The notes: generated by a model from the letters alone, not told the origin. 64,000 nucleotides of DNA from Streptosporangiaceae bacterium (GCA_030041135.1 JASHOL010000528.1:6720-70719), one strand, 5' to 3'. Positions 403-23,709 are shown, counted from the first letter of the stretch. A program made the numbers and translations.

Positions 403-735
403 ATGGCAGCATCGGCATCGCGGCCACTGCGGCAGCCGGAACGTTTCGGGCGTCTGTGGTGGCTCCCCGGCGATGGCGAGGGCAACGGCCTTGACGACAC
501 CGGCTGGGCTCCCCTCGCCGTCGGCGACATCGCGGTCATCCGCGCCTTGATCGCGGAACTAGCAAGCGCGGGCGTGCCGGCTTTCGCCGCCCCCGTGACA
601 CGCCGTCCGCCCCGGCGCGGGAAACGTTCTGGCGCGGGTCGTTTCCAGCTGTGGGTCGGCACGAGCCGGTACAGCCGCGCCGAGGATGTCCTGCGCGTCA
701 AGCTCCCGGCGCTGCTGAGAACCCCGAGGTCATAG
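403..735 (+). CDS. Hypothetical protein (110 aa)
   Basis: ATG ORF with fairly high third-position G+C. No recognisable motif. Its 3-prime end overlaps the convergent HyfB-like gene by 6 nt. Confidence 0.3.
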   Translation: MAASASRPLRQPERFGRLWWLPGDGEGNGLDDTGWAPLAVGDIAVIRALIAELASAGVPAFAAPVTRRPPRRGKRSGAGRFQLWVGTSRYSRAEDVLRVKLPALLRTPRS

Positions 736-3697: not shown

Positions 3698-3728
3698 TGC
3701 TGGCGGCTCCCTTCTCTCGTACCTTCGC

Positions 3729-5306: not shown

Positions 5307-6796
5307 CCGAGTACCCCGATCGAGTGCGTGATCACGGTGCTCAGGCCGGCTGGTATCCAGAGGCCGAGCACGAGGAGGGCAGCCAGACCGACGGTGACAG
5401 GGGCTACAGCCGTCAGGCTGGCTGCCCGGCCCTGGTACGGACTGGCCCGGCCCGCTCCGGCCAGCCCGGCCACCGGCTCGCCGGTGGCCATGCCAGTGGT
5501 GGTCCTCGCGAACGCGATGAACGCGACCGCCAGCAGGAACAGGAGCAGCAGCGGCAGCACCGGGCTAGCGCCCGCGAACCCTGCCCTGACGATCGTGAGC
5601 TCGGACAGGAACAGGCCGAACGGCGGCGATCCCAGCACGGCGAAAGAGCCGAGCAGCAATGCTCCGCCGGTCAGCGGAACGGCGGCCAGCAGGCCGCGCA
5701 CCCCCGCCGCCTCCCTGGTGCCGGAGCGCAAGGCGATGTCGCCGCTGGACAAGAACAGCACGGCCTTGGCGATCGCGTGGTTCAGCGTGTGCAGCAGCGC
5801 CCCGTACAGGCCGAGCACGCCGCCGAAGCCGAGCGCCACCGCGATGATGCCCATGTGCTCGACCGAGGAGTAAGCGAAAAGCCTCTTGAAGTTGCCCCTC
5901 CGCACCATGAACAGCACGCCGATCACGATTGACAGGAAGCCGAACACCAGCAGCACGAGGCGGGGAAACTCGGGACCGAGGCCGGCCTTCGCGATCGCCA
6001 GGAACCGGATGATCGCGTACATGCCGGTGTTCAGCAGCGCTGCGGACAGCATCGCGCTGGCCGGGCTCGGCGCCTCCGCGTGCGCGTCCGGCAGCCAGGT
6101 ATGCATCGGTGCCAGCCCGACCTTCGTTCCGTACCCAACGACCGCGAGCAGGAACGCCAGCCGCAGGCTCGCGGGCGCCAGCGAGCGGGCATGCGCGAAC
6201 AGGAACGGCCAGGTCAGCCGCAGGTCAGGCGCGAGGTGGAGGGCGCTGGCGGAGTAGAACAAGAACAGCGTGCCGGCCAGCGCGATCGTCACGCCGAGCG
6301 AGCTGATGATCACGTACTTCCACGCTGCTTCCAGCGAGCTGGCCTTGCCCTCCAGGCCGACAAGCGCGGCGCTGGCCAGCGTGCTGGCCTCGATGAGCAC
6401 GAACAGGAGGCCAAGGTTCCCTGTCTCCAGCGAGGCCAGCATCAGGGCCGCGAACAGCCCGAAGAAGATGAAGTACAGCCGGACCTGGAAGCTCGTCAGC
6501 CGGCCGGCCGCCTCCTCGGCCGACAGGTAGCCGACCGACCCGACGGCGGCCAGCAGGGTCACGGCCGAGACCGTGAACAGGAAGAAGCAGCTGAGCGAAT
6601 CCACGTAGAGGTAGCCGCCGAGACCGCGCACCGGCACGCGGTGCAGCTGAGCCACGAGCAGCCAGACCGCGGCCGCCAGGGTCAGGCTCGCGCCCGCGGC
6701 ACCGCTCCAGCCCGCCACCCGGCCGCGAGCACCGGACGCCGCCGCTACCGTGCCTGCCAGCGGGCCGGCGATGATGATGAACGCCAGGACTGTCAT
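5303..6796 (-). CDS. Ehr1 antiporter-like subunit, HyfF/HycQ/NuoN-M family
   Basis: The internal ATG at 6796 (MTVLAFIIIAG...) forms an ATGA overlap with the HyfE-like stop. NuoN/M-like blocks GTKVGLAPMHTWLPDAHAEAP and YSSVEHMGII are present. The upstream part of the 694-aa track ORF is Arg-rich and likely spurious. Confidence 0.85.
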   Translation of the reverse strand: MTVLAFIIIAGPLAGTVAAASGARGRVAGWSGAAGASLTLAAAVWLLVAQLHRVPVRGLGGYLYVDSLSCFFLFTVSAVTLLAAVGSVGYLSAEEAAGRLTSFQVRLYFIFFGLFAALMLASLETGNLGLLFVLIEASTLASAALVGLEGKASSLEAAWKYVIISSLGVTIALAGTLFLFYSASALHLAPDLRLTWPFLFAHARSLAPASLRLAFLLAVVGYGTKVGLAPMHTWLPDAHAEAPSPASAMLSAALLNTGMYAIIRFLAIAKAGLGPEFPRLVLLVFGFLSIVIGVLFMVRRGNFKRLFAYSSVEHMGIIAVALGFGGVLGLYGALLHTLNHAIAKAVLFLSSGDIALRSGTREAAGVRGLLAAVPLTGGALLLGSFAVLGSPPFGLFLSELTIVRAGFAGASPVLPLLLLFLLAVAFIAFARTTTGMATGEPVAGLAGAGRASPYQGRAASLTAVAPVTVGLAALLVLGLWIPAGLSTVITHSIGVLG

Positions 6797-7467
6797 CCCT
6801 GCAGCTCCCTCAGCTCGGACGAGCTCGCGCTGGCGAGCTGGCGGGTCAGGCCCGAGACGAACACGAGCATGATCAGGACGCCGGCCACGACGTCGAGGAA
6901 GATCCCGGCCTCGACGATGAAGGGGAACGTGGCGACCAGGGTGATCGCGCCGAGGAACACCCCGTTCTCCACGATGAGCCAGCCGATCAGCTGCGCGACC
7001 GTGTGCCGGCGGACCACCATGGCGAGGGCGCCGAGGAGTATCACCGCGGTCGACAGTGGCACGATCGCCGCGGCGACCAGGCCGTGAGGCAGGAGCTGCG
7101 GCCTGGTCACCAGATAGGCGAACGCGGTCAGGCCTCCGCCGGCGATCAGCGAGGTGGACAGGCCGGTGGAGAGCGCGGCATCGCGCTTGAGATCGAGTCG
7201 GCGGATCAGGAGCCTGCGCGCGGCGACCGGAATCGCGATGCCCTTGATCGCGAGCGTCGCCACGGCGAGTATCCAAAGCTCCGCGCGGCCGAACGCGTAA
7301 GCGGCGACGCCGGCGGCGAAGGCCAGCACGACGGACTGAGCGCCGTAGTAGGCGACGTACCGGTTGAACAGCTTGGAGCCCAGGCACGCAAACGCCAGCA
7401 GGAGGATGACCACGCCTGACAGGTCGAGCAGGACGCCGACCGTGCTGGTTGCGGACAGGCTCTGCAC
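6793..7467 (-). CDS. Ehr1 HyfE/HycP-like (NuoK-type) membrane subunit
   Basis: 224-aa polytopic protein in the position and of the size of hydrogenase-4 component E. GTG start lies 3 nt after the HycD-like stop. Confidence 0.8.
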   Translation of the reverse strand: MQSLSATSTVGVLLDLSGVVILLLAFACLGSKLFNRYVAYYGAQSVVLAFAAGVAAYAFGRAELWILAVATLAIKGIAIPVAARRLLIRRLDLKRDAALSTGLSTSLIAGGGLTAFAYLVTRPQLLPHGLVAAAIVPLSTAVILLGALAMVVRRHTVAQLIGWLIVENGVFLGAITLVATFPFIVEAGIFLDVVAGVLIMLVFVSGLTRQLASASSSELRELQG

Positions 7468-7470
7468 GGC

Positions 7471-8424
7471 TCAGGCGCCAATCACGTAGGACGTCGCCAC
7501 GCCGACCAGAGCGAGCAGGAAGGCGGCACCGAGAAACTCAGCGATCCGGAAGAAACGAAGCTTGGCGAACGACGTGTCGATCACGACGATCGCCAGTCCG
7601 CAGAGGGCCAGCTTCCCGGCGAGTGCCGGGATCGCGAGGACGGCACTGGCGAGGTCGGCGCCGTTGCCGAGTCCCCAGGGCAGGACGAACACGTTCATGA
7701 AGATCGAGGACAGCAGGAAGAACTTCATCCAGCTGCCCCACTTCATCAGCGCGTAGGCGCGGCCCGAGTACTCGAGCACGCGGCTCTCCTCGATCATGGA
7801 GATCTCGGTAGTCCCGCCATGGCTGTCGATCGGGATCCGTCCGTTCTCGACCAGCACGATCATGAAGAACGCCAGCAGGCCGAGCACGTGGGTCGGGAGC
7901 ACCAGCGCGTACGGCGAGGCGGATATCGCGTGGTTCATCAGGTACGGGTTGTCCGACGCCGATACCGCGCCCACGGTGAAGAACACGAGGATCAGGGCGG
8001 GCTCGGCCATGCTGCCGATCCAGCTGGCCCGGCTGGCGCCAAGGCCGCCGTAAGGGCTGGCGGTGTCCAGGCCGGCCAGCGAGGTCATAAAGCTGGCGAG
8101 CGCCAGCACGAACGCCCCGCCGATCAGGTCGGCGAGGAACGCCAGCGGCAGCGGGGTGTTGGTGATCACCGGGACGATGACCGAGACCGTCAGGTAGCAG
8201 GCGAACGTGACGAACGGCGTGATCGCAAAGACCCACGACGCCTGGTCGCTGGTGGCGCTGCCCTTGCGCAGGAGCTTGGCCAGGTCGCGGTAGGGTTGCA
8301 GCACGCTCGGGCCGCGCTTGGACTCGACGATCGCCTGCGCCCTGGCCAGCCCGCCGGCATACAGCGGCGCAGCCAGCAACACCACCAGGCTCTGCAGGAC
8401 CTGGGCGACGACAGCAGACAGCAA
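7471..8424 (-). CDS. Ehr1 HycD/HyfC/NuoH-like membrane subunit
   Basis: Contains RGPSVLQPYRDLAKLLRKG and ...IPIDSHGGTTEISMIEES..EYSG, typical of formate hydrogenlyase subunit 4 and NuoH. TTG start at 8424 is preceded by GGAGG with a 5-nt spacer. Confidence 0.85.
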   Translation of the reverse strand: MLSAVVAQVLQSLVVLLAAPLYAGGLARAQAIVESKRGPSVLQPYRDLAKLLRKGSATSDQASWVFAITPFVTFACYLTVSVIVPVITNTPLPLAFLADLIGGAFVLALASFMTSLAGLDTASPYGGLGASRASWIGSMAEPALILVFFTVGAVSASDNPYLMNHAISASPYALVLPTHVLGLLAFFMIVLVENGRIPIDSHGGTTEISMIEESRVLEYSGRAYALMKWGSWMKFFLLSSIFMNVFVLPWGLGNGADLASAVLAIPALAGKLALCGLAIVVIDTSFAKLRFFRIAEFLGAAFLLALVGVATSYVIGA

Positions 8425-8458
8425 AAGACCTCCACCTGGGCGGATCGTCCGTGCAGGT

Positions 8459-8505
8459 AGAGGCCATCAGCCGGGACTCCCCCGGCGTTACGCGAGCCTC
8501 ATCGC
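8459..8505 (-). promoter_or_regulatory. Conserved element copy a: AGAGGCCATCAGC-N20-GCGAGCCTCATCGC (plus-strand reading), 34 nt upstream of the Ehr1 operon start
   Basis: The two boxes are identical in all three copies (8459-8505, 9098-9143, 21615-21662). A TATGCT -10-like hexamer on the minus strand (8518-8523) lies 12 nt upstream of the element. Confidence 0.7.
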
Positions 8506-8568
8506 GTGATCTTCTTCAGCATACACAGCGCTAGGTCAGCGCGGAAGCCGCTATGCCTGGCAGGCCGG

Positions 8569-9045
8569 TTACTGACTGCTTAGCAACAGCACCGGCACCG
8601 GACAACTCTGGACAGCGCAATCGGCCACCTGACCGAGCCGGGACTTGCGGCGCCGTCCGTCGCCGTGCCGGCCCAGCACCAGCACGTCGAAGCCGTGCTC
8701 GGCTGCATACCGGGTCACGACCTGAGCGGGGGTATCGCGATCGGCGTAGACGACCTGGGCGCTCATCCTGACCGCGTTGCCCGTCGGCAGGTCGCGGCGC
8801 AATTCGCCGAACACGATCTCCGCGAGCTCCGCGAGGTGCCTGCCCTCGCCATCCTCGTCGGTGTCGCCGTCAGCTCGCGGCGCGCGCCGGATGACCGAAA
8901 GCGCCACCACGTGCCCCCCGTCGCTGGCTACGATCGCCGCCGCCGCCCTGATCGCGTCGGCCCCGTCCGGCGACCCGTCGAAGCCCGCGAGGACACGCCG
9001 GAACGGCCCGACCGACTTCACCCGAGCCACCCGCCGGTAACGCAT
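8569..9045 (-). CDS. Universal stress protein (UspA family)
   Basis: Contains RRVLAGFDGSPDGADAIRAAA... and the C-terminal VLVLGRHG....SRLGQVADCAVQSCPVPVLLL USP signature. The start is uncertain: ATG at 9045 is chosen, the ORF is open to a TTG at 9087, and GTGs at 9030 and 9021 are also possible. Confidence 0.8.
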   Translation of the reverse strand: MRYRRVARVKSVGPFRRVLAGFDGSPDGADAIRAAAAIVASDGGHVVALSVIRRAPRADGDTDEDGEGRHLAELAEIVFGELRRDLPTGNAVRMSAQVVYADRDTPAQVVTRYAAEHGFDVLVLGRHGDGRRRKSRLGQVADCAVQSCPVPVLLLSSQ

Positions 9046-9097
9046 GTCGCCCGACTCAACGACAGCCTCCAGACTCCCGGCAACCAAAGGACTGCGC

Positions 9098-9143
9098 AGA
9101 GGCCATCAGCGACATTCTTCGCGGTTACGGCGAGCCTCATCGC
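9098..9143 (-). promoter_or_regulatory. Conserved element copy b: AGAGGCCATCAGC-N19-GCGAGCCTCATCGC, upstream of the USP gene
   Basis: Boxes identical to copies a and c. A GACAAT -10-like hexamer on the minus strand (9152-9157) lies 8 nt upstream of the element. Confidence 0.7.
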
Positions 9144-9637
9144 CTGTGGTCATTGTCACGACCTGATCGCCGCCTCACAAGGGTCTCCCGCTATTACCCG
9201 TCTGACGAGCGGACCAGGGTCGGCCTTGACCCGCCCCGCTCCCCATTGCCACACTGCTCGGTGGCGATGGGGCTCGCCTGCAAGCGCGGCGTCCGCCGCT
9301 GACAGTCCCTGTACCAGCCAACTGGTGGTCAGGGTGAGGCATGTCCAGGGTGAGCGAAGACGAGGTCCTACTCCTGTGGCGAGCGCTACGCGGGTTTCGG
9401 TCAGGCCGGCGGCCGGCCTGCTCTGCCCGTGGCAGTCCGCCGACCAGCCCGTGCCCGCTGCATGACCGCTGCCCGCGATGGCAGGGTGAGCCCGACGACT
9501 GGCTGGCCAGCCTGGAGGAGACGTCTGGTCAGACCGAGCGCAGGCGCTCAGCGTGGCCGTGCAGCAGGCTGCTGGAACTGCTGTCACCCGACCTGACGAG
9601 GATCGGCCCGTGACGGCGTGCGGGCGGGGCGGCTAGC

Positions 9638-10867
9638 ATGCCGGCTGCCACCCCGCTCCCCCACGGGCCAACGGTCCTGACCCTGTACGGCGCCGAGGAC
9701 CTGCTGACCGCTCCCGGCTGTCCCGTGTGCCGGTATGCCGGGGAGGCCAGCGACCGTTACTTCGGCTGGTTCGCGCTCGAAGGGCACGCCCAGCCCGGAA
9801 TGATCGCGACACTGGCTGGATCGCTGGGCATGTGCGCCGCGCACAGCCGCAGGCTCATCGGTCAGCCGGGCGCAGCGGTGCGCCTTACCGCCGTCTACCG
9901 GTACGTCGTGACCGCAGCACGGGACCGGCTGGCGGGCAGCACCGCTCCGGTCGCGCCCTGCCCGGCCTGCGAGCACGACGACGCGGCCGCCGGGCGCGCG
10001 CTCGAGACACTGGTGGACGGGCTCGACGACGGGTCGGTCGCAGATCGCTGCCGCGATCTCGGTGGCCTGTGCCTCCCGCATCTGTCGGTTGCCTCCGGCG
10101 GCGCCCGGCGACGGGTAGTTGCCTGGCTGGGTGAGACCGTGCGGGCAACCCTCGCCGCCGGCCAGGACCGGATCGGTTGGCTGGCCGGAGTCGACCATGA
10201 CGCCGGGGCCAGGGCCGCGCTGCGGGCTTCGATCCCCGCCGCCGACACGCCCGCGCCCTGCGCGTGCCCGGCCTGCCTGGCGGCGCTGCGGGCGGAGCGC
10301 GACAGCCTCGCTGTGCTTCCAGCCGGCCCAGGCAGGACGCTAGATTACCCGAATACCGCGCCGGCGCTGTGTCCCGGCCACCTCGCAGATGCGGCCGCCG
10401 CGGCGGCGACGGCGGGCGGATTGCGTGCGCTGCTGGCGTCGCAGGCTGCGGTCCGCGTCGACGGAAACCGGCCGGACGCCGGCCGGTCCCGCTGGCGCCC
10501 AGCCGCTCTCCACCGGGACCGTTCTCCCCGCTGTCCCGTCTGCCGGGCACGCGGCGAGGCCGAACAGCGAGCCCTCACGGGCATTATCAGTGCACTCCGG
10601 AGTTCGCCGCCAGAAGCAGGCCAGAGGGTGCCACTGTGCGCCCGGCACCACCTGGGCGTACGCGCCGCCGCTGGGCGGGCCAGTGAGCCGCTGGCCCGCC
10701 AGGCTGCCGCGACTGCGGACCAGCTCGCCCGCGATCTGGCGGCGGAATTCGACGGCACCACCTGGGCTCGGCGCCAGGGTGCCCCCGCGCCTGAACCCGT
10801 CGCCTGGCGCCGGGCGGCAGAGTTCCTCGACGGAACTGTTTTCGGTGCCAGTCGCCCATCCAGGTAG
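9638..10867 (+). CDS. Cys-rich protein with four CPxC...CxxH modules (putative 4x zinc-ribbon-like; function unknown)
   Basis: The four modules are GCPVCRY...GMCAAH, PCPACEH...GLCLPH, CPACLAAL...ALCPGH and RCPVCRARG...PLCARH. Transcribed divergently from the USP gene. Confidence 0.7.
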   Translation: MPAATPLPHGPTVLTLYGAEDLLTAPGCPVCRYAGEASDRYFGWFALEGHAQPGMIATLAGSLGMCAAHSRRLIGQPGAAVRLTAVYRYVVTAARDRLAGSTAPVAPCPACEHDDAAAGRALETLVDGLDDGSVADRCRDLGGLCLPHLSVASGGARRRVVAWLGETVRATLAAGQDRIGWLAGVDHDAGARAALRASIPAADTPAPCACPACLAALRAERDSLAVLPAGPGRTLDYPNTAPALCPGHLADAAAAAATAGGLRALLASQAAVRVDGNRPDAGRSRWRPAALHRDRSPRCPVCRARGEAEQRALTGIISALRSSPPEAGQRVPLCARHHLGVRAAAGRASEPLARQAAATADQLARDLAAEFDGTTWARRQGAPAPEPVAWRRAAEFLDGTVFGASRPSR

Positions 10868-13859: not shown

Positions 13860-15938
13860 TTAGTGCAGGCCAGTGACCAGCGCCAGGACGGCAATGAGCG
13901 CGATCAGCATGTAGGCCAGGTACGCGTCGAGGCGGCCCGACTGCAACCGCTGCGCTTGCCGCACCGCGAGCGCGAACGGCCGCCGGAAGGGCCGGTAGAA
14001 GTACTCCTCCGTGACCTCGATGACGTCGGAGCTGTACTCGACATGGGCTGCGGCCGCGCCGGCGTCCGGGTCCCTGGCATCATCACTGACCTCGAGCCTG
14101 GTGACCTCGGCTCGGGTGTGCAGGATGGCGGCGAGCACCCGCCGCGCGGGATTCGCGAAGGCGAAGGCGGTGTAGCTCGCACGTCCGGAGACGCCCGCGG
14201 TGGCTGAGCGCCAGGCCGGGACGCGGCGGACTCGCAGCAGGCGCCCCCCCGATGCGAGCCAGGCCAGCACGGCGACCACCGCGAACAGCGTCGGCATGAC
14301 GATCCAGAGCCACGAAGGCGACAGGATCGAGAAGCCGGCGTACACCGGTTGCAGCACCCAGGGCGACTTCAGCGCCGCTGTCACCGCGGCGGACGGCAGC
14401 ACCGGGACGAGCCCGGCACCGATCATCCTGATCTCGAGCGGTGCCAGCGCGGCCAGCGCCAGGCACGCAGCGGCGAGCGCGACGATGCCTGCCCGGCCGG
14501 CGAGACCGGGATCACCGTCGCCGCTGGCCGCCGCGCTTCGAGGCGAGCCGAGCACGACCAGGCCGACCAGCCGCACGAAGGTCACGCCCGCGAAGCCCGC
14601 GGTCAGCGCCACCGCCGCGCCGGTCACGGCCAGCACCAGCCGGTCAGCCAGCCCCGGCACCCGGAACTGCTGCATGAGCGCCTCGAGCAGGAACCACTCG
14701 GAGACGAAGCCTGCCGTCGGCGGCAGCCCGGCCAGCGTCAGGCTGCCGATCGCGAGTCCGGTGCCGCTCCAGGGCGTCCGCCGCACCGACCCGCGCAGGT
14801 CGTCCAGGTCATCCCGTCCCGCTGCGGCTTCGATTCCTGGGCTGGAGACAAACAGCAGCGATTTCGCCGCGGTGTGGGCGATGACCTGGAGAGTTGCGGC
14901 CAGCAGCCCCGCCGCCGTGAGGGCACGGCTGCCGGTAGCGGCGCCGACCAGGGCCACGCCGAATCCGGCCAGGATGAGGCCGGTGTTCTCCACGCTGGAA
15001 TACGCGATGACGCGCTGCAGGCTGCCCTGCACCGCGGCGTGGGCGATGCCGAGGACGGCGGTCATGCTGGCGAGCAGCAGCAGGACGTCGCTCACCGCAG
15101 CAGGGGGTGGGCCGAGCACGGCCAGCGTGCGCCACAGGCCGTAGAAGCCCACATTGACCGCAACTCCGGCCATGATCGCGCGCGCAGGTCCGGTCGCGGC
15201 GGCGTAACCGCGCGGCAGCCAGACCTGGAACGGGACCAGCCCGACCTTGACCGCGAAGCCCGCCAGCAAGAGCACGCAGGCGGTGGATCGCAGTGGTCCG
15301 TGGGCCACGTGGGCCAGGCCGGCCAGCGTCAGCGATTCTGACCTGGTGACCAGCAGGAGCAGGCCAGCGAGCAGAAACGCGCCACTTATGCGGCCGAATG
15401 CGAGCGTGACTAGCGCGGCCGCCGGACGGCCATGCGTGACCCGGCGGTAACCCGACAGCACCCAGAAGGCCAGCGTCAGCGACTCCCACGCAAACAGCAG
15501 CGTGAACGCGTCCCTCGCGGTGAGCACGACCGCGACCGAGCCGAGGGCGAGTGCGTACCCGGCGCCCAGGCCGCGGCGTCCTGGCCCGCTGGGGCCGATA
15601 GACCACGAGGCGAACGCGAGCGACACAGCCGCCGCCGCGGTGAAGGCGATCACGAGGAACAGGCCGGAGAGCCGGTCTGCGGCGAGTCCCGGAATCACGG
15701 AGAAGCCCGGCCGCGCGCCGATCGCCACGACTCCGAGCAACCCGCCGGACCTGAGCGCCACCGCCCGGCCCGCCAGGGCGGCGGCGCCGGCGACGGCCAG
15801 GCTCACCGAGCCGACGGTGCCTACCAGGTACGGTGCGGCCCGCCACGCCCGCCCCCGCGGCCCGGCTCCCAGGTCAGCCGCGGCCGCAAGGGCGAGCAGG
15901 ATCAAGCCGACGGCCAGCGCGACTCCGAACCCCGTCAT
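13860..15938 (-). CDS. Ehr2 antiporter-like subunit, HyfB/NuoL family
   Basis: ATGA overlap with the upstream gene. Contains WESLTLAFWVL, GFAVKVGLVPFQVWLPRGY and YSSVENTGLI blocks. Syntenic with 730-2748. Confidence 0.85.
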   Translation of the reverse strand: MTGFGVALAVGLILLALAAAADLGAGPRGRAWRAAPYLVGTVGSVSLAVAGAAALAGRAVALRSGGLLGVVAIGARPGFSVIPGLAADRLSGLFLVIAFTAAAAVSLAFASWSIGPSGPGRRGLGAGYALALGSVAVVLTARDAFTLLFAWESLTLAFWVLSGYRRVTHGRPAAALVTLAFGRISGAFLLAGLLLLVTRSESLTLAGLAHVAHGPLRSTACVLLLAGFAVKVGLVPFQVWLPRGYAAATGPARAIMAGVAVNVGFYGLWRTLAVLGPPPAAVSDVLLLLASMTAVLGIAHAAVQGSLQRVIAYSSVENTGLILAGFGVALVGAATGSRALTAAGLLAATLQVIAHTAAKSLLFVSSPGIEAAAGRDDLDDLRGSVRRTPWSGTGLAIGSLTLAGLPPTAGFVSEWFLLEALMQQFRVPGLADRLVLAVTGAAVALTAGFAGVTFVRLVGLVVLGSPRSAAASGDGDPGLAGRAGIVALAAACLALAALAPLEIRMIGAGLVPVLPSAAVTAALKSPWVLQPVYAGFSILSPSWLWIVMPTLFAVVAVLAWLASGGRLLRVRRVPAWRSATAGVSGRASYTAFAFANPARRVLAAILHTRAEVTRLEVSDDARDPDAGAAAAHVEYSSDVIEVTEEYFYRPFRRPFALAVRQAQRLQSGRLDAYLAYMLIALIAVLALVTGLH

Positions 15939-16750
15939 CGCGCGTCACCAGCCGCCGCTGACGTCAGCGGTCCGGCGCTTGCAGGAATCCGGCCCACCGC
16001 CGTCAGGAGCGCCGACAGAATCGCGAACGGGCTAGGCGGCGAGCCTGGCAGCCACACATCGACCGGCACGATGTCACCTACGCCGCCGCTAACGGCGTAG
16101 GACGGGCTGACGATGCCGCCGCCCACCGCGTCCGTCCCGACCGCGATGACCACCTTCGGATCGGGCATCGCGTCGTAAGTCTCGCGTAGCGGCCCGGCCA
16201 TGCCGCGCGCGCCCGCCCCGGTGACCAGCAGGATGTCGGCGTGCCGCGGGCTGGCCGTGAAGAACAGGCCAAGCCGGTGAATGTCGTACACCGGGTTGAG
16301 GAGCGCCATGATCTCCCACTCCTCGCTGCCGTCGGATCCAGCGTCGACGTGACGCAGGTGCACCGAACGGCGCAGGGCCCTCGTGCGGACGCGGAGCCGG
16401 TCGCTCACCTCACGGAGCGCGTCCGGGCTCTCGGCAGCCGGTACCACCAACTCCGGCCGGGTGAGCGTCGCGCGATGCGGGTCGGCCGACCAGGCGAAGA
16501 CGTCCGGCCGGGCGGCGACGCAGCGGCCGCAGAGGATGCACTTGCCCTGGTCGACGCGGATGCCACCATCCTGATCCGCGCTGATCGCATCGACCGGGCA
16601 CAGTCGCGCCGCCTCAGCCGCCGGGAGCGCGGCAGCGGCCGGGCCCGGCTTGACTGTTGCCGGTCCGCGCGTCGCGTTCGCGTAAACGTCCGGTCGTCCC
16701 GGCCATCCGGTCGTCAGGACGCCGTTGCGCAGTCCGCGCAAGACCCACAT
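15935..16750 (-). CDS. Ehr2 fused HycF-like ferredoxin domain plus HycG/NuoB-like small subunit; all NuoB-type Cys ligands are substituted
   Basis: The N-terminal part has GLRNGVLTTGWP, LCPVDAI and CILCGRCVAARP. The C-terminal part aligns to the Ehr1 small subunit but reads GSDGSEEWEI, VGTDAVGG and LPGSPPSP in place of GSCAACEQEI, TGACALGG and IPGCPPSP. Confidence 0.85.
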   Translation of the reverse strand: MWVLRGLRNGVLTTGWPGRPDVYANATRGPATVKPGPAAAALPAAEAARLCPVDAISADQDGGIRVDQGKCILCGRCVAARPDVFAWSADPHRATLTRPELVVPAAESPDALREVSDRLRVRTRALRRSVHLRHVDAGSDGSEEWEIMALLNPVYDIHRLGLFFTASPRHADILLVTGAGARGMAGPLRETYDAMPDPKVVIAVGTDAVGGGIVSPSYAVSGGVGDIVPVDVWLPGSPPSPFAILSALLTAVGRIPASAGPLTSAAAGDAR

Positions 16751-16765
16751 CTAATGCCTCGCCAT

Positions 16766-18253
16766 CTACCGGGCCGCCCCGGCCACGGGCAGCCCGAAGC
16801 TCGCCTCGATGAACGGGAAGTCGGTCAGGATGTCACCGGCGAATACCTCGTGCATCAGCACCAGGTTGTGGAACGCCGCCGGCCGCACCCGGCAGCGAGT
16901 GATCACGCCGCCCTCGATGCGCACGTCATACAGGAGCTCCCCCTGCGGTGCTTCAGCCCACCCGGTTGCACGTCCGTCCGCCTGGCCCAGGTCGGCGCGC
17001 AGCGGACCCGACCCGGCGTCGGCCAGCTCGTCGGCGGCCTGGCGGAGCAGGTGGACTGAACCGCCGATCTCGTCGACTCTGACTTCCAGCCGGGCCAGCG
17101 CATCGCCGTCCGAGCGCGAGCTAGTCGTCATGCCCAGCAATCCGTACGCCGCATAAGGCCTGGACTGCCGAATGTCCTCGCCAGCGCCCGACGCGCGCCC
17201 GATCGGACCGAGCGCGCGGTGCTCGGCTGCCCTGGCCGGGGCCAAGGGTCCGGTGCGGCGCAGGCGATCAAGGAATGACGCGGTGCCCATCAGCAGGTCG
17301 AGATCGGGTGTGATGCGCCGGTCCAGGTCGCCAATCGCGCCCAGCAGGTCAGGCGGCCCAAGCAGCGGCGGACCGCTGACGCCGCCCGGTACGACCAGGC
17401 CGCGGCCGAACCTGCTGCCCGACAGCTCGCCCGCTAGCCGCAGGACCCGCTCCTTGTGCCAGCCGAACCTGGCGGTCGCCACGGCCAGCCCGGCCCCGTC
17501 GGCCAGCCGGACGATGATGTCCAGATGACATGCCAGCCGCTCCAGCTCGGCCTGCGCGACCCGGATCAGCGACGCTCGCCAGGGCACATCCAGGCCCGCG
17601 ATCCGCTCGACCGCCTCGCAGAACGCGATCGCATTGGCGACCGACGCGACGCCCTCGGTCCGCTCGGCCAGCAGTACCCCGTCGGCCGGGCTCAGGCCCT
17701 CGAAGCGCTTCTCGATCCCGCGATGCTTGTAGAAGATCCGCATGTTCAGGTGCGGGATGTCCTCGCCCGGCGTCTCGACCAGGTACTCGATCGACTCGGT
17801 CACTCCCGACCGCACCGGCCCGTGCGGGATCGTGAACAGCCCCGGCCCGGCGGCATGGCGCGGCAGCACACCGGGATCGGGATCGATCGCAGCCGGGGCC
17901 GCGCCGCCTCCCGGCATCGGCAGATCCGTGCTACTGGTCGGCAGGACCAGCGGCTCTAGCCGCGGATGACCCTCAGGCACGACGCCGAACAGGTCGTGAA
18001 TCTCGCGCTCGTACCAGAACGCCGGCGCTACCTGAGGGGTAAGTGCCGGGTAGCGCACTTGATCGGACGGCAGCAACGCCTCGAGGCTGGTGATGGTTGC
18101 CCGGTCGGCCAGTTGAGCGGTGAGCACCAGCCCGTCGGGATGAGCGGTGGCGAACAGGTCAGCCAGCCGGCTGCCGGCCTCGATCTGGCGGACGACCAGG
18201 TGCCACAGCGCAGGGACGCTCGCGGCCAGCCCGGGCTCAGTGGCGGCAGTCAT
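16766..18253 (-). CDS. Ehr2 large subunit, HycE/NuoCD type, lacking the Ni-Fe Cys ligands
   Basis: The internal ATG at 18253 (MTAATEPGL...) forms an ATGA overlap with the HyfF-like stop. ERTEGVASVANAIAF and the C-terminal FIEASFGLPVAGAAR replace the two CxxC motifs. Contains FYKHRGIEKRFEG. Confidence 0.85.
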   Translation of the reverse strand: MTAATEPGLAASVPALWHLVVRQIEAGSRLADLFATAHPDGLVLTAQLADRATITSLEALLPSDQVRYPALTPQVAPAFWYEREIHDLFGVVPEGHPRLEPLVLPTSSTDLPMPGGGAAPAAIDPDPGVLPRHAAGPGLFTIPHGPVRSGVTESIEYLVETPGEDIPHLNMRIFYKHRGIEKRFEGLSPADGVLLAERTEGVASVANAIAFCEAVERIAGLDVPWRASLIRVAQAELERLACHLDIIVRLADGAGLAVATARFGWHKERVLRLAGELSGSRFGRGLVVPGGVSGPPLLGPPDLLGAIGDLDRRITPDLDLLMGTASFLDRLRRTGPLAPARAAEHRALGPIGRASGAGEDIRQSRPYAAYGLLGMTTSSRSDGDALARLEVRVDEIGGSVHLLRQAADELADAGSGPLRADLGQADGRATGWAEAPQGELLYDVRIEGGVITRCRVRPAAFHNLVLMHEVFAGDILTDFPFIEASFGLPVAGAAR

Positions 18254-19809
18254 GACGCCCGCCCGCTGAGGATCTCGACGGCCCGCAAGAACAGGTCGGT
18301 GAGCTCGGCTGGCGGATGCAGGCCGAGTACCAGCAGGGCCAGCACGCCCAGCGCGACCGGCACCACCATCCATGCGCTCGGTTCGCCGCGAGCCAGCGTC
18401 GGCGCGGCAGCACCAGACGCGGGAGCACTAGGACGGTCAGCCGCGGCCGTCGCGCTACCCGCCGTCACCAGCTGTCTAACGGGCCGATCGGATGGCCGTG
18501 CGGCGGGCAGCATTAGCATGCGCGTTGTCGAGGCGGCCAGGCCGAAGAATGCCACCGTGACCGCGATGATGAGAAATGCGGCGGTCGCGTAGCTACCCGA
18601 GCTCAGGCCGCCGGCAACGATCTCGAACTCGCTCCGGAACACGCCGAAGGGCGGCATTGCGCCGAGCGCGAAGATGGCGAGCAGGAACAGCGGCCCGCTC
18701 GACGGCAGCAGATCCAGGCCACCGCGGATGGAGTCGATCCGCTTCGTCCCGAACTTGCGCACGAACACGCCCGCACCCATGAACGCGTTGGCCTTAGCCG
18801 CGGCGTGCCCGAGCACATGCAGCAGGACGCCGGCCAGGGCGGCGGGGGCGCCAAAGCTGACCCCGATGGCCAGGATGCCCATGTGCTCCACGCTCGAGTA
18901 CGCGAGCAGCCTCTTGATATCGCGCTGACCGAACAGGTACAAGGCCGCGAGCAGCAAGGATGCGATCCCGAACGCAAGCAGCACCCCGCGCGGGAACGCC
19001 GGGCCGAGCGTTGCCGCCGCCACCTGGTAGAACCGGAGGATCGCGTAAAAGCTCACCGCCAGCAGCGACCCGGACAGCAGGGCCGACACCGGCGTCGGTG
19101 CTTCGGAGTGGGCGTCCGGCAGCCAGGTATGCAAGGGCACCAGGCCCATCTTCGTGCCGTAACCAACCACGGCCAGCACGAATGCCAGCTGCACCGCAGC
19201 GTGCGGCAGGCGCCGGGCGGCGGCCAGGAGCTGGGTGAAGCCGAGATCGTAGGACTGGCCGAGGACGTGCGCGCCCGCATAGTAGGCGAAGATCGTGGCC
19301 AGCAGCGCGAGGCCCAGCCCGGCCGACGCGAGCAGCACGTATTTCCATGCCGCCTCTGCTGCGCCGTCGGTGTCCTCGATCGCGACCAGCAGCGCCGAGA
19401 TCACGGTGGTGACCTCGATCGCGACCCACAGCAGCGCGAGGTTGCTCATCATCGGCGCGACCAGCATCGCCCAGGCGAACAGGTTCAGGCCCGCCCAGAA
19501 CTGGCGCGCCCGCCGGCCCTCCCGGCCCTCGTGCGCGGCGCCGCCCGCGTAGCCGACCGAGTAGATCGCCACGGTCGCGTAAAGGAACGAGGTGGCCAGC
19601 AGAAAGACCGCGCTGACCGCGTCGACCCGCAGCGCCCGCAGGTACTCAAGGTCGCCGTGCGCCGCCGTCGGCGTCAGCGCGATCACCAGCCCGAAGCATG
19701 CGATGCCGCACGCCGGGGTGAGCATCTTCGCGGCCCGGAGCGGTGCGCGCAGGCAGGCCAGGGCGGTCGCCAGCGGCAGCGCCAGCAGCAACAGCATCAC
19801 GGCGTGCAC
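18250..19809 (-). CDS. Ehr2 antiporter-like subunit, HyfF/HycQ/NuoN-M family
   Basis: Contains GTKMGLVPLHTWLPDAHSEAP and YSSVEHMGIL. GTG start at 19809; an ATG at 19797 is an alternative. Confidence 0.85.
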   Translation of the reverse strand: MHAVMLLLLALPLATALACLRAPLRAAKMLTPACGIACFGLVIALTPTAAHGDLEYLRALRVDAVSAVFLLATSFLYATVAIYSVGYAGGAAHEGREGRRARQFWAGLNLFAWAMLVAPMMSNLALLWVAIEVTTVISALLVAIEDTDGAAEAAWKYVLLASAGLGLALLATIFAYYAGAHVLGQSYDLGFTQLLAAARRLPHAAVQLAFVLAVVGYGTKMGLVPLHTWLPDAHSEAPTPVSALLSGSLLAVSFYAILRFYQVAAATLGPAFPRGVLLAFGIASLLLAALYLFGQRDIKRLLAYSSVEHMGILAIGVSFGAPAALAGVLLHVLGHAAAKANAFMGAGVFVRKFGTKRIDSIRGGLDLLPSSGPLFLLAIFALGAMPPFGVFRSEFEIVAGGLSSGSYATAAFLIIAVTVAFFGLAASTTRMLMLPAARPSDRPVRQLVTAGSATAAADRPSAPASGAAAPTLARGEPSAWMVVPVALGVLALLVLGLHPPAELTDLFLRAVEILSGRAS

Positions 19810-19812
19810 CGG

Positions 19813-20523
19813 CTATCCCCGCAGTCTGGTCAGGTCGGCGGTGGACATGGACTCGGCGCGGCCGTGATGCACGCGGATCAGCAGGCCGAACACGACGACC
19901 GCGACCAGCAGGTCGAATAGGAAGGCCACCTCCAGGATCAGCGGAAGCCCGGCCGCCACGACCAGCGCGGTGAGCGAGACGCCGTTTTCCAGCGACAGGA
20001 ACCCGATGGCCTGGGACACGACGTCCCGGCGGACGATCATGAGCACGAACGCGACCAGGATGACGGCCACCGAGACCGACAGCGCCGTCGCCGGAAGCAC
20101 CGGGCTGGTGATGCCGAGGGCTGCGACGGTGAAGAAGCCGAAGGCCGCCACCGCGATCGCGACCAGCACCGCGTTCGCCACGCTGAGCGCATGGCTGCCC
20201 GCGATGTCGCCCCAGCGCGGGTCGCCGCCGATCGCACCGATGCCGCGCAACAGCCTGCGCAGCACGACCGGCACGATCACGGCCTTGAGCGCGAACGACA
20301 GCGCCGCCAGGGCGTACAGATCCGGGAGGTGGCGGGTCGCGGCGACGACCACAGCCAGGACCGAGATCAGCGCCGACTGGGCCGCGTACAAGCGGACCTG
20401 ATCGCGCAGCAGTGCCTGCCTGAACATGCCGAACTCGGCCAGCAGCACGCCCACCGCGATGACGTTGGCACCACCGGACAGCGCGCTCGGCGCCGCCACC
20501 GTGGCCGCGATGACTCCCGACAT
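19813..20523 (-). CDS. Ehr2 HyfE/HycP-like (NuoK-type) membrane subunit
   Basis: The internal ATG at 20523 (MSGVIAATVAA...) overlaps the HycD-like stop (TGATG). Paralogous to 6793-7467. The upstream part of the track ORF is unlikely to be coding. Confidence 0.8.
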   Translation of the reverse strand: MSGVIAATVAAPSALSGGANVIAVGVLLAEFGMFRQALLRDQVRLYAAQSALISVLAVVVAATRHLPDLYALAALSFALKAVIVPVVLRRLLRGIGAIGGDPRWGDIAGSHALSVANAVLVAIAVAAFGFFTVAALGITSPVLPATALSVSVAVILVAFVLMIVRRDVVSQAIGFLSLENGVSLTALVVAAGLPLILEVAFLFDLLVAVVVFGLLIRVHHGRAESMSTADLTRLRG

Positions 20524-21485
20524 CACCCGCCACCCAGGTAGAGCGTGAACACCCCGAGCACCGCGAGCAGGAACGCGCCCGCGGCGAACTCGGTGATCTT
20601 GAACAGTCGCAGCTTGGCGAACGAGTTGTCGATCACTGCGATCACGACGCCGAGCAGGGCGGCCTTGCCGACAAGCGCCGCGATCGCCAGCAGCACGGGG
20701 ACCAGACCCGGGGTCGAGGCCAGGCCCCATGGCGCGACGAACACGTTGAGCAGGATCGTGAACAGGATCAGCTGCTTCATGGCCGAGCCCCACTTCAGCA
20801 GCGCGAAGTACGGCCCAGAGTGCTCGAACGGCCGGGCCTCCTCGATCATCCCGAACTCGTTGGTGCCCGTGTGGGTCTCGACCGGGATACGGGCCGTCTC
20901 GTAGAGAATCACCATGAACAGCGCCGCGGCGGCGAGCAGGTGAGCGGGCCGGATGATCTGCCCGGCGGAGGAGCGCACCGTGGCGGCCAGGGCGTAGGGC
21001 AGGTCGGTTCCCGTGACCAGCGCGACCGTGAACACGACGAACAGCACGACCGGCTCGGTGATCGCGCCGAATGTCTTAGCCCGGCTCGCGCCTAGCTGGG
21101 CGTACGGGCTGCCGGTCTCCAGGGCGGCCACGGCGACCAGGAAGCTGGCCAGCGAGAGGATGAAACCTCCGCCGAGGATGTCTCCCATGTAGCCAAGCGG
21201 CAGGCCGAATGTGGTGAGCACCGGGATCAGCAGCGGCACCGTCAGGTAGCAGGCCATAGCGCCCAGCGGCACGGCCAGGAACACCCAGCTGGAGCCCTCG
21301 GGGGCTAGCGCCTCCTTGCGGAAGAGCTTGGCCAGGTCGTAGTACGGCTGCAGGACGCGCGGCCCGGTCCTCCCCTGCAGCCGTGCCTCGACCCGGCTGA
21401 TCACGCCCGAGACACCAGGGGCAGCCGCCGCGATCGTCACGACCTGGAGCAGCTGGACGACGGGTATTGGCAGCGCCGGACTCAC
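20523..21485 (-). CDS. Ehr2 HycD/HyfC/NuoH-like membrane subunit
   Basis: Contains GRTGPRVLQPYYDLAKLFRKE and IPVETHTGTNEFGMIEEARPFEHSG. By-eye alignment puts it at roughly 45% identity to 7471-8424. Confidence 0.85.
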   Translation of the reverse strand: MSPALPIPVVQLLQVVTIAAAAPGVSGVISRVEARLQGRTGPRVLQPYYDLAKLFRKEALAPEGSSWVFLAVPLGAMACYLTVPLLIPVLTTFGLPLGYMGDILGGGFILSLASFLVAVAALETGSPYAQLGASRAKTFGAITEPVVLFVVFTVALVTGTDLPYALAATVRSSAGQIIRPAHLLAAAALFMVILYETARIPVETHTGTNEFGMIEEARPFEHSGPYFALLKWGSAMKQLILFTILLNVFVAPWGLASTPGLVPVLLAIAALVGKAALLGVVIAVIDNSFAKLRLFKITEFAAGAFLLAVLGVFTLYLGGG

Positions 21486-21746: not shown

Positions 21747-23483
21747 CTAGACGCCGACTGCCGCGGTCCCGGATTCGCCGGGAATCCGGCCGAGGGCCGC
21801 GCGGATGCTGCGGTCGCGCTCGTCAAGCTCAGCCAGCTGGCGGTCACGCTCCTGGCCGGCTTGGGCCCTTATCAGGCTCGCATGGTCCAGGGCCGCGGTC
21901 AGCCGCTGGGCCGAGATCGCGTAGCGACGGCGTACGTCGGCGATGACCTGCCTGGCCGCCTCGGCCAGCCGGTACTGCAGGTCACCCCGCGCGCGTCCGA
22001 TCTGGCTGCTGACCAGCTGGTCGACCTGGTCGAGCACCGCCCTGCGGGCCAGGCGCCGGCCGTAGTCACCGGGTACCCGGCGCCGGATCGCGCCGGCCAC
22101 CAGTTCGGCCTGGTCCACATGCTCGTCCAGCGTGTAGAAGAAGCTGCGGCTGTCGGGCAGCCGTTCGTCAGACGCCGGCAGCGTGAGTTCGAGGCCGAGC
22201 AGATCAGCAGCCGCAGTGCGCACGGCGGCTAGCTCCGCCTCCAGGTCGGACAGCAGCCTCTGGCCGAGGGTGCGCAGCCCGTCCTGCAGCCGGCCGGTCT
22301 GCTCCTGACGCCAGTCCTCGGCCGCCGCGGCGACCATGCCCGTCAGCTGCGCCCGGCCCGAGCGCTCGATCTCGGATACCGGGACTGCGGCCAAGTCCCG
22401 GTCCAGCACCGCGGCCATGCGCTCGGCGGTCTCCGCCGACAACCGCGGCCGCGCGTCGGCGGCAGCGGCGTTGAGAGCCTCAAGCAGCCGCCTGGATTGC
22501 GCGGTCGCCCGGTCCTCGGCATCGACCCGGCCACTGGACATGGCGGCCAGCCGGGCGCGGAACGCCGCGACCTGGGCTCCGGCGTCCTCGCCGGGCAGTC
22601 GCGCGGCGCGCTGAGCCAGCGCCACCTCGTCCAGAAGCTGCCGCCCGATCCGGCGTGCATGCCGAGCCACGGAACGCTCCAGCCCGGCGATCCGGCCGGC
22701 ATCGAGATAGCCGGTGAAGTCCTGGGCGAAGGCGGTGAAGCCGGCATCACCGGCCGGGGTCAGCGCGGTCCGCGCGGACAGCGGGTACACCCGCTCGGCC
22801 CGGCCGGTCACGTCGCTGACGACCCGCGCGGTGAACTCCCGTGCCTCCGACAGCGACTGCTCGTCCAGGTAGTCGGCCTTGTTCAGGACGACGAACAGCG
22901 CCACCGACAGGCCCGCGACCCGGCCGAGCAGGTCCCGTTCGCTGGCCGATACCGGCGGGTCAGCCGTGAGCACGAAGATGGCCGCGTCCATCGACGGCAG
23001 GGCCGCGTCCGCGGCGGCGGTGTTGTCCGCGTGCACCGAGCCGGTGCCCGGCGTATCGACGATCTCCGCGCCTCTGGCCAGGATCTGCGCGTCAGCCCGG
23101 ACCGTGATTCCCGATACGTTGCGGCAGTTCCCCGGGTTACCCCGTTCCGTGCCGTAATCAGCGAGCGCAGAGAGTGGCTGGCGTTCGGTCCGGCCGTCGC
23201 CGAAAGTAACCTCGATGTCCTCGCCGTCAGCCTGCACCACCGTGGTCGCGACCGCTGTCAGGGGCGTCACGCCAACAGGCAGAATCTCCCGGCCCAGCAG
23301 GGCGTTCACCAGTGTGCTCTTGCCGCGCTTGGCCTCCCCCGCGACCAGCACTCGCAGCCGCGCCGAGTCCAGCCGGTCAGCCAGCGCGGCCAGCGCCTCC
23401 CGATCGGCGTCGTCGGCCAGCGCGGCGAGGCTCTCCAGAGCCGCGCCGATGGCCGTCATGCCAGCTGTGCGCACGTTCGTCAC
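21747..23483 (-). CDS. Dynamin-family GTPase (bacterial dynamin-like protein)
   Basis: G1 GEAKRGKST, G3 DTPGTG and G4 LNKAD motifs are followed by a long helical Ala/Arg/Leu-rich stalk-like C-terminus. Confidence 0.8.
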   Translation of the reverse strand: MTNVRTAGMTAIGAALESLAALADDADREALAALADRLDSARLRVLVAGEAKRGKSTLVNALLGREILPVGVTPLTAVATTVVQADGEDIEVTFGDGRTERQPLSALADYGTERGNPGNCRNVSGITVRADAQILARGAEIVDTPGTGSVHADNTAAADAALPSMDAAIFVLTADPPVSASERDLLGRVAGLSVALFVVLNKADYLDEQSLSEAREFTARVVSDVTGRAERVYPLSARTALTPAGDAGFTAFAQDFTGYLDAGRIAGLERSVARHARRIGRQLLDEVALAQRAARLPGEDAGAQVAAFRARLAAMSSGRVDAEDRATAQSRRLLEALNAAAADARPRLSAETAERMAAVLDRDLAAVPVSEIERSGRAQLTGMVAAAAEDWRQEQTGRLQDGLRTLGQRLLSDLEAELAAVRTAAADLLGLELTLPASDERLPDSRSFFYTLDEHVDQAELVAGAIRRRVPGDYGRRLARRAVLDQVDQLVSSQIGRARGDLQYRLAEAARQVIADVRRRYAISAQRLTAALDHASLIRAQAGQERDRQLAELDERDRSIRAALGRIPGESGTAAVGV

Positions 23484-23709
23484 CTACCTATGCCAGGTAG
23501 GGACCGTTGGCGGCGGCGCCGCATTTCGATGGCGGGCCCCTCCGCCCGTTCGGTGCCTGCCAGGCTAGCCGCTCACCGCCAGGCCAGCGCAATCGCGCCT
23601 GGCTCAGCGTGGCGGCTGGGTTCTTGCCATGTGCGCAGAAGCTGGCGGCCACAAGGGATAGCCCGGCGCAGCGCCACGGGCCTACCATGCGCTGGTGGCC
23701 CAGGGTTTC

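Follow-up and report, generated by a model that had tools for sequence, protein, structure and literature searches.

Can a small subunit of the complex I/hydrogenase superfamily be maintained by selection once the iron-sulphur (Fe-S) cluster that it normally carries has gone? The question is raised by a stretch of 64,000 nucleotides from Streptosporangiaceae bacterium (GCA_030041135.1 JASHOL010000528.1:6720-70719, in the following called the window), whose minus strand carries two paralogous Ehr-type operons of six or seven genes each, about 5 kb apart, here named Ehr1 and Ehr2. In every member of complex I or the group 4 hydrogenases that has been characterised, to our knowledge, electrons reach the active-site pocket from the NuoB-type cluster as their final carrier, and this cluster is a near neighbour of the elements considered to link chemistry with ion pumping. 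In Ehr2, a HycF-like ferredoxin and a HycG-like (NuoB-type) small subunit are joined in one protein of 271 residues, in which Asp, Glu, Asp and Ser (D-E-D-S in the following) take the places of the four Cys ligands of that cluster. Both the fusion and the substitutions had been read from the DNA alone (the original prediction), and open reading frame (ORF) calling, Pfam and the alignments discussed below bear it out; beyond that, the pattern proves to be the property of a large, selectively maintained clade. A natural N2-less complex of this kind, with its architecture kept and three carboxylates in the place of the cluster, could show what these complexes owe to negative charge at the N2 site.

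A NuoB/HycG half without cysteine

On the 271-residue protein, Pfam recognises a Fer4-type domain (residues 49-92) and an Oxidored_q6 (NuoB) domain (residues 144-249, E=8.6e-21). The protein belongs to the latter family (PF01058) with 74.4 bits, the cut-off being 27; the NCBIfam NuoB models all stay under their curated cut-offs (106.3 versus 116 bits for the best of them, NF005012, and 97.3 versus 142.7 for TIGR01957). Searching solved structures with HMMER returned HycG (7z0s_G, E=3.6e-29) and also aligned MbhJ (6cfw_J), and both alignments set D140 and E143 against the CxxC pair, D207 against the third Cys and S237 against the Cys of the CPP motif. The same four correspondences follow from BLASTP with the small subunit of Ehr1 (48% identity over 156 residues, with 2 gaps), and hardly any gap interrupts the three motifs when the protein is aligned to HycG, MbhJ or Ehr1, in agreement with the residue-for-residue replacements listed in the original prediction (for example, GSCAACEQEI to GSDGSEEWEI). 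The SPRHAD loop of this half (residues 167-172) is invariant. The fusion gene is accompanied by genes for a NuoD/HycE-type large subunit and a NuoH-type membrane subunit, as is proper to its family; what its NuoB half lacks are the four Cys ligands of the proximal/N2 [4Fe-4S] cluster.

Since no Cys is left in the whole NuoB half, the usual cluster should not be bindable there, a conclusion already drawn in the original prediction and one that we consider sound. Single Asp, Ser, His or Glu ligands are found in some Fe-S proteins (the Pyrococcus ferredoxin and the NB-cluster of dark-operative protochlorophyllide oxidoreductase, DPOR) and would be the precedent for a [4Fe-4S] or other Fe-S cluster still held by Asp, Glu and Ser. 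However, we know of no natural Fe-S cluster without any Cys, and neither the Cys-free NuoB half nor the large subunit, whose former metal-site positions are E, A, P and G, could supply one, which renders this explanation very improbable.

The quality of the structure predicted by AlphaFold2 depended on the depth of the alignment. From 56 sequences, all at least 71% identical, a model with a predicted local distance difference test (pLDDT) score of 55.7 was obtained, residues 206-239 falling below 50; from 142 sequences, pLDDT rose to 88.9 with a predicted template-modelling score (pTM) of 0.86, and the loops formerly wrapping the cluster reached block-mean pLDDT values of 90-97. Foldseek matched the model to HycG (E=1.4e-13), to MbhJ (TMt 0.86, root-mean-square deviation 1.3 A over 129 columns) and to NuoB/PSST chains of the PDB, so that loss of the cluster is predicted to have left the NuoB fold in place. 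Errors of sequencing, assembly or alignment, or a frameshift, could be suspected in a high-GC assembly of the metagenome-assembled genome (MAG) type, the more so in view of the poor shallow-alignment model at residues 206-239. The original prediction had itself pointed to resequencing and to non-equivalent alignment positions as the places where it might fail. An identical fusion protein is, however, encoded by four independent NCBI MAG assemblies, which excludes sequencing error, hundreds of homologues share the pattern, the motif alignments are nearly gap-free, and the deep-alignment model is confident exactly in the region around residues 206-239; an artefact is hardly credible.

The ferredoxin half retains one ligand set

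All four Cys of the protein are found in its N-terminal half (C51, C71, C74 and C77). A profile built from the N-terminal halves of fused relatives matches NuoI, MbhN and, with E=5.6e-26, residues 1-110 of HycF (7z0s_F), so that homology to HycF/NuoI includes the N-terminal extension, here with a W..RGLR.G..TT.WP motif; according to the structural work on formate hydrogenlyase (FHL), this extension is common to the whole superfamily (PMC9474812). Compared with relatives containing eight Cys, the protein retains from motif 1 the CP Cys and from motif 2 the CxxCxxC, which together make up one [4Fe-4S] ligand set, as had been proposed from the sequence. The three leading Cys of motif 1 are absent and R81 replaces the second CP Cys, so the half falls short of a 2x[4Fe-4S] ferredoxin with its two CxxCxxCxxxCP motifs and 8 Cys. 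We take the retained set to be that of the medial, N6b-type cluster according to the ligand scheme of Thermus Nqo9. This assignment agrees with parsimony, because relatives combining a 4-Cys ferredoxin with an intact NuoB cluster must keep a connected chain, and we infer from motif position, that scheme and parsimony that the surviving cluster corresponds to the medial N6b/F-type one.

Ehr2 as a member of the Ehr family

Within the six-gene Ehr2 operon, the fusion ORF starts 15 nucleotides past the stop of the large-subunit gene; its stop codon and the start codon of the NuoL-like gene share the sequence ATGA. Alignment to HycE (7z0s_E) revealed that the large subunit is without all four NiFe-ligating Cys required of a group 4 [NiFe] hydrogenase, the L1 motif RxCGxC reading R-T-E-G-V-A and the two L2 Cys sites being occupied by P and G. 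Its C-terminal residue is Arg, presumably the maturation-cleavage site of HycE, and Gly is present at what we take to be the position of the quinone-site Tyr of complex I. Ehr2 is thus an Ehr complex and not a hydrogenase because the NiFe ligands are absent, and not a complex I because of this Gly. The definition of Ehr fits throughout, namely a group-4-hydrogenase-like operon without the L1/L2 CxxC ligands of NiFe and with HyfB-, HyfC-, HyfE- and HyfF-like membrane subunits. The NuoL/HyfB-like subunit matches the NCBIfam model 'hydrogenase 4 subunit B' with E=2e-106, yet stays under the curated cut-off. In the HyfF-like subunit, Glu, Lys, His and a second Glu are kept at sites conserved in the aligned NdhD; we assign them to transmembrane helices TM5, TM7, TM8 and TM12 and assume them to be the proton-channel set. 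No NuoE, NuoF or NuoG genes are found in the Ehr2 operon or its flanks, and a redox partner gene is missing in or beside the Ehr2 operon in every relative.

Conservation, distribution and selection

The 120 nearest homologues, which are at least 71% identical and all fusions of about 260-290 residues, retain D140 without exception (120/120), E143 and D207 in 119 cases each and S237 in 118; the four ferredoxin Cys are found in 120, 120, 120 and 119 of them. A second search was seeded with a distant member, P0295, and recovered mostly new sequences (43-55% identical to P0295), 105 of 117 of which again combine D-E-D-S with a 4-Cys ferredoxin. Even among the 82 members with less than 60% identity to the window protein, D140 is kept in 82, E143 in 81, D207 in 80 and S237 in 81, and the four ferredoxin Cys in all 82. 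The combination therefore stays near-invariant down to about 45% identity and over hundreds of 90%-identity clusters. In the wider clade, V, I, T or A may also stand at ligand position 2, and A, D, N or G at position 4, and a D-C-A-A variant was found in Candidatus Velthaea. Judged from genome contigs, the clade consists of MAGs of Actinomycetota (Streptosporangiaceae, Trebonia of the Streptosporangiales, Solirubrobacteraceae); the database search suggested in the original prediction thus uncovered a large, mainly actinobacterial clade, and in a rough neighbour-joining (NJ) tree the Asp...Asp clade is monophyletic.

The operon as a whole is maintained as well. About 20 species-level genomes carry it complete and in syntenic order, stop codons overlapping the starts that follow. 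Of the Ehr2 proteins, the NuoH-like subunit varies least (it is 80-98% identical in actinobacterial relatives, 75% in L026 and 49% in the distant L025), the large subunit is only 56-93% identical among actinobacterial relatives and the least conserved in nearly every locus, and the membrane arm is the most conserved part of the complex. Ratios of nonsynonymous to synonymous substitution (dN/dS, Nei-Gojobori) against 11 relatives amount to 0.16-0.34 for the whole fusion gene, with lower values in the NuoB half (0.09-0.27) than in the ferredoxin half (0.20-0.40). The residues replacing the cluster ligands are therefore under strong purifying selection.

These data bear directly on the idea of neutral decay, in which Ehr2, as a dispensable duplicate of Ehr1, would be turning into a pseudogene and the substitutions would be relics without function. 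Two paralogous operons so close to each other would invite such decay, the progressive loss of cofactors in the family (see below) would agree with it, and in L024, a MAG from long reads, tblastn splits each of three genes (those for the HyfF-like subunit, the large subunit and the fused small subunit; 7532-10727) into two pieces. The splits may be frameshifts, probably due to assembly errors and not to real pseudogenes, and the low dN/dS (0.09-0.34), the intact six-gene operon and the conservation of the four residues speak against decay. In addition, an uncultured Actinomycetota MAG (L011) has been left with a mere remnant of Ehr1, in which NuoH residues 3-182 are joined to NuoL residues 650-710 (15954-16649), and with an intact Ehr2 upstream. 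Ehr2 is not a decaying spare copy, because this organism lost Ehr1 and kept Ehr2, and we regard neutral decay as highly unlikely.

Stepwise loss of the cofactor chain and recurrent acidic replacement

The original prediction had asked whether fusion and substitution occur together, which holds in one direction only: every full-length D-E-D-S clade member is fused to a 4-Cys ferredoxin, but fusions also exist with intact Cys, even in true [NiFe] hydrogenases. An exhaustive representative search (5590 matches) and 80 metagenome loci yielded a graded series. In the metagenome loci L041, L045 and L046, complete NiFe ligands (RCGC...CC) are found together with an 8-Cys ferredoxin and four intact NuoB Cys (CCCC); L048, L049, L077, L111 and L112 have lost the NiFe ligands, but neither the 8-Cys ferredoxin nor CCCC; L043, L044, L047 and L056 combine a 4-Cys ferredoxin with CCCC; and the clade of the window protein, with a 4-Cys ferredoxin and D-E-D-S, is the end point. 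The fusion is thus older and wider than the D-E-D-S substitution and, given the fused relatives that stand beside complete NiFe motifs, arose in bona fide group 4 hydrogenases before the metal was lost in Ehr lineages. The cofactor chain, to judge from these loci, has been dismantled stepwise across relatives.

Nor is acidic replacement peculiar to the D-E-D-S clade, as it recurs in lineages that lost the cluster independently. Examples of such losses are T-D-E-S (P0259), D-T-D-N (P0245), S/N-E-G-D (P0244 and P0249) and S/T-C-D-D (L068 and L073), as well as three with CCCC sisters, namely D-A-A-D in P0193 (sister P0207), S-A-E-S in P0171 (sister P0189) and E-C-E-D in P0152 (sister P0186); the motifs of all these lineages align cleanly. 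Counting one representative per lineage and leaving the main clade aside, 13 of 29 replaced positions are acidic compared with a background of 9.5% (binomial p=8e-7), independence of the lineages being judged from the rough NJ tree. As Cys to Asp or Glu takes two or three nucleotide changes, this bias reflects selection and not mutation. P0152 and P0235 have lost the NuoB cluster and kept both ferredoxin clusters.

What takes the place of the cluster

At about even odds (a probability near 0.5), we propose that the Ehr2 small subunit can no longer hand electrons to the large subunit, that selection has put carboxylates in the place of the cluster to fill its electrostatic and structural role, perhaps with a cation bound, and that the membrane module is what works. 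With the proximal/N2-type cluster gone and the remaining ferredoxin cluster two relay steps away from the old active-site pocket, canonical electron transfer through the arm would be abolished. A [4Fe-4S] cluster with four thiolates has a net charge of -2 or -3, and three carboxylates and a Ser may have been selected to replace this anion, keeping negative charge and pocket packing, the charge being held either by pairing with basic residues conserved throughout the family or by a bound redox-inert cation. The contact surface towards the large and NuoH-like subunits, of which the SPRHAD loop is a part, would thereby stay intact. The working part would be the membrane module of one NuoH-like, one HyfE-like and two antiporter-like subunits, most likely a cation or proton translocator whose driving force is something other than electron flow through NuoB, with the peripheral arm as a structural or regulatory cap. 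The surviving ferredoxin cluster could be a structural need of the small ferredoxin fold, or a redox or oxygen sensor gating the complex under stress.

Several observations weigh against this proposal. The residues are kept in their exact identity as tightly as the ferredoxin Cys (Asp rather than Glu at positions 1 and 3, Glu at position 2 and Ser at position 4), a degree of constraint that one would sooner expect of ligands or catalytic residues than of a filler. The strict conservation of the ferredoxin cluster, and even of both clusters in P0152 and P0235, would be odd if electron input were useless, and the medial assignment of the surviving cluster depends on motif position, the Nqo9 scheme and parsimony. 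Finally, no basic residue compensating specifically in this clade was found.

Candidate residues beyond the four positions were considered as well. An Arg of the large subunit (RFGRG, five residues before PGG) was rejected as a clade-specific compensation, as RFGRG also occurs with the intact Cys of L111 and L112, and R-x-L-R-G is present in the large subunits of many other fused CCCC loci. Evidence for Trp as a filler of the cavity is weak: W145 is kept in 78 of 82 members, but Trp also stands at this site in some CCCC sequences, and W233 is Tyr in divergent members. Two changes from Glu to His were dismissed as new ligands. H134 is not exclusive to D-E-D-S proteins, being invariant in alignment A4 including seven non-DEDS rows (six of them CCCC), and position 158 lies, by its place in the secondary structure, at the far end of the sheet.

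The near-invariance of the four residues to about 45% identity, on a par with Fe-S Cys ligands, can also be understood if D140, E143, D207 and S237, together with the invariant E144 and E146, hold a mono- or binuclear Fe, Mn or other metal at the former N2 position. Such a site would take electrons from the adjacent ferredoxin cluster or serve a non-redox catalysis, and its cofactor would be new to the superfamily. The positions are pre-organised around the cofactor cavity in a fold predicted to be unchanged, the strictly kept ferredoxin set should adjoin the N2 site (by the Nqo9 ligand scheme and by parsimony), lineages lacking the NuoB cluster still retain one or two ferredoxin clusters, and the recurrent acidic residues of the independent losses fit cation binding equally. 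On the other hand, no His or Cys has been gained, known all-oxygen ligand sets usually bind redox-inert Mg or Ca, positions 2 and 4 vary more freely in the wider clade than would be expected of a catalytic metal site, the large subunit, as the place of any substrate pocket, is the least conserved one in nearly every locus, and no maturation or metal-insertion genes accompany the Ehr2 operon. We regard a new metal site as possible, though doubtful. A broader formulation, in which D-x-x-E...D...S with Glu144 and Glu146 makes an oxygen-ligated metal or cation site at the N2 position, acting either as a redox or catalytic metal fed by the adjacent N6b-type cluster or as a switch by which the antiporter module, in response to cations, is driven or gated, is likewise no more than a speculative and rather unlikely suggestion. 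If true, it would add a new kind of cofactor site to the complex I/hydrogenase superfamily and offer a natural test of whether the coupling machinery reads the charge at N2 rather than electron transfer.

The finding also has a practical side. Homologues are labelled in the source databases as 'Ni,Fe-hydrogenase III small subunit/ferredoxin' or simply 'ferredoxin', and metabolic reconstructions of soil Actinomycetota may therefore wrongly deduce hydrogenase or complex-I-like redox activity from them.

Ehr1 and the gene neighbourhood

The features of both operons are compiled in Table 1. Ehr1 had been described as the complement of Ehr2, with an intact NuoB and a degraded ferredoxin. Its NuoB is indeed intact and its ferredoxin has lost one Cys, but the contrast is weaker than claimed. 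Ehr1 is not without a ferredoxin partner, which is encoded as a separate ORF between the large- and small-subunit genes, overlapping the GTG start of the latter as GTGA. This protein is 34% identical to the N-terminal half of the Ehr2 fusion and keeps three of the four Cys (the CP Cys and C-T-V-A-G-W-C, in which only the middle one is gone), a CxxAxxC...CP pattern resembling that of [3Fe-4S] ferredoxins. The Ehr1-type relatives L071 and L090 have the full CxxCxxC (C-T-A-C-G-R-C) and thus all four Cys, and complementarity is therefore specific to the genome of the window and only partial. The N-terminus of the Ehr1 small subunit (3170-3353, minus strand) forms a Cys-free, low-complexity extension of about 60 residues in which a SEPPGRG(G/A) segment is duplicated; it takes the place of the linker between the two domains of the Ehr2 protein and looks like an insertion or duplication separating the ferredoxin and NuoB parts.

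Table 1. Positions of the Ehr2 and Ehr1 features in the window
Feature	Position	Strand	Basis
Ehr2 operon, six genes in the order NuoH/HycD-like, HyfE-like, HyfF-like, large subunit, 271-residue fusion, NuoL/HyfB-like	13860-21485	-	gene order
Ehr2 NuoH/HycD-like subunit, 320 residues	20523-21485	-	Pfam NADHdh
Ehr2 HyfE-like small membrane subunit, 236 residues	19813-20523	-	NCBIfam 'hydrogenase 4 membrane subunit', E=1.2e-17
Ehr2 HyfF/NuoM-N-like antiporter-type subunit	18250-19809	-	Pfam; alignments to NdhD and MbsH
Ehr2 large subunit, NuoC+NuoD/HycE-like, 495 residues	16766-18253	-	Pfam; alignment to HycE 7z0s_E, E=8.5e-44
Ehr2 small subunit, ferredoxin-NuoB/HycG fusion, 271 residues, ATG start	15935-16750	-	ORF call, Pfam
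HycF/NuoI-type ferredoxin domain, residues 1-108	16427-16750	-	profile match to HycF, alignment with 8-Cys relatives
C51 codon (LCPVDAI)	16598-16600	-	
C71 codon (CILCGRC)	16538-16540	-	
C74 codon (CILCGRC)	16529-16531	-	
C77 codon (CILCGRC)	16520-16522	-	
NuoB/HycG domain, residues 128-255, no Cys	15986-16369	-	alignments to HycG, MbhJ and Ehr1
D140 codon	16331-16333	-	read from sequence
E143 codon	16322-16324	-	read from sequence
D207 codon	16130-16132	-	read from sequence
S237 codon	16040-16042	-	read from sequence
Ehr2 NuoL/HyfB-like antiporter-type subunit, 692 residues	13860-15938	-	Pfam Proton_antipo_M
Ehr1 operon, paralogous	730-8424	-	Pfam, NCBIfam, alignments
Ehr1 NuoH-like subunit	7471-8424	-	
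Ehr1 HyfE-like subunit	6793-7467	-	
Ehr1 HyfF-like subunit	5303 to about 6700	-	
Ehr1 large subunit	3729-5306	-	
Ehr1 HycF-like ORF, separate, 115 residues	3350-3697	-	NCBIfam PRK12387, E=5e-8
Ehr1 small subunit, all four Cys intact	2745-3353	-	
Ehr1 NuoL-like subunit	730 to about 2750	-	

A gene of the universal stress protein family (Usp; 8569-9087, minus strand) is found directly downstream of Ehr2, as it also is in L007, L011, L012, L014, L024, L030, L033 and L037, and in L032 two Usp genes and a hemerythrin gene lie upstream. Such neighbours suggest a context of stress or hypoxia; the homologous locus of Mycobacterium tuberculosis is regulated by hypoxia, which would fit the Usp neighbours of Ehr2. 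Immediately upstream of Ehr2, a dynamin-family GTPase of 578 residues is encoded (21747-23483, minus strand), which accompanies the operon in L005, L010, L011, L021, L022 and L030 as well, though not in all relatives. Between the two Ehr operons, an ORF of 409 residues (9638-10867, plus strand) has no Pfam match but contains CPxC-type pairs (CPVC, CPAC, CACPAC and CPVC); its homologues adjoin Ehr2 in L030 (50% identity) and L011 (41%). Farther on, an AA_permease_2 transporter with a C-terminal OB-fold domain (23695-26040, plus strand) lies beside a DUF4118-HisKA sensor kinase, KdpD-like in our reading, with its response regulator (26730-28805, minus strand); these genes are probably unrelated to the Ehr2 finding.

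Comparison with known systems

The best matches for the two halves of the Ehr2 fusion, both in sequence and in fold, are HycF and HycG of Escherichia coli FHL (7z0s) and MbhN and MbhJ of the membrane-bound hydrogenase (MBH) of Pyrococcus furiosus (6cfw), and Ehr2 shares with these enzymes the HycE-like large, HycD/NuoH-like and antiporter-like partners. It differs in the fusion of the two proteins and in their clusters, of which the ferredoxin part has lost one of two and the HycG part its only one; moreover, the large subunit is NiFe-less, and an electron-input module of the HycB or FdhF type is missing. In the relay of FHL, inter-cluster distances are below 14 A (PMC9474812), and in FHL as well as in NDH-1 the electrons run from F/N6a over N6b and G1/N2 to the active site (PMC9474812, PMC7021789). 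With complex I/NDH-1, Ehr2 shares the homologous folds of NuoB (carrying N2) and NuoI (N6a, N6b), the order of these parts along the electron chain, the conserved SPRHAD loop and the NuoH partner, but it has neither N2 nor an N6a-type cluster, nor NuoEFG or ferredoxin-docking subunits. The tandem-Cys N2 site, the NADH-input module and the quinone-site Tyr/His of complex I are all missing, the last of these to judge by the Gly at the presumed position of the Tyr.

The closest counterparts by type of operon are Ehr of Geobacter sulfurreducens (GSU0739-45) and the 'hyc' locus Rv0081-Rv0087 of M. tuberculosis, hydrogenase-4-like operons of unknown function whose large subunit is without the NiFe Cys, as in Ehr2 (PMC6349859, PMC10284858, PMC7894505, PMC6728331). 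In these papers, Ehr is defined by the loss of the NiFe ligands alone, and a loss or acidic replacement of the small-subunit cluster is not mentioned, nor did full-text searches bring up an Ehr small subunit described as cluster-free, a statement that does not extend to Marreiros et al. (2013) or Coppi (2005). Most Ehr small subunits recovered in our survey keep CCCC. Coppi's 2005 work is said to describe Ehr as well.

Mrp antiporters, finally, offer a functional analogy only, that is, a complex-I-type membrane module of antiporter-like subunits that would run without an electron chain. Nothing but these subunits is common to Ehr2 and Mrp, which is not known to have homologues of NuoB, NuoD, NuoI or NuoH; Ehr2 keeps the whole peripheral arm and a NuoH-like subunit. 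Within the Ehr family, the Ehr2 fusion is thus a homologue of NuoB/HycG joined to one of HycF/NuoI, in which the cofactor-defining feature of both is lost, and a complex of this type could show whether ions can be translocated without electron transfer through the arm, which would link the Mrp antiporters to complex I.

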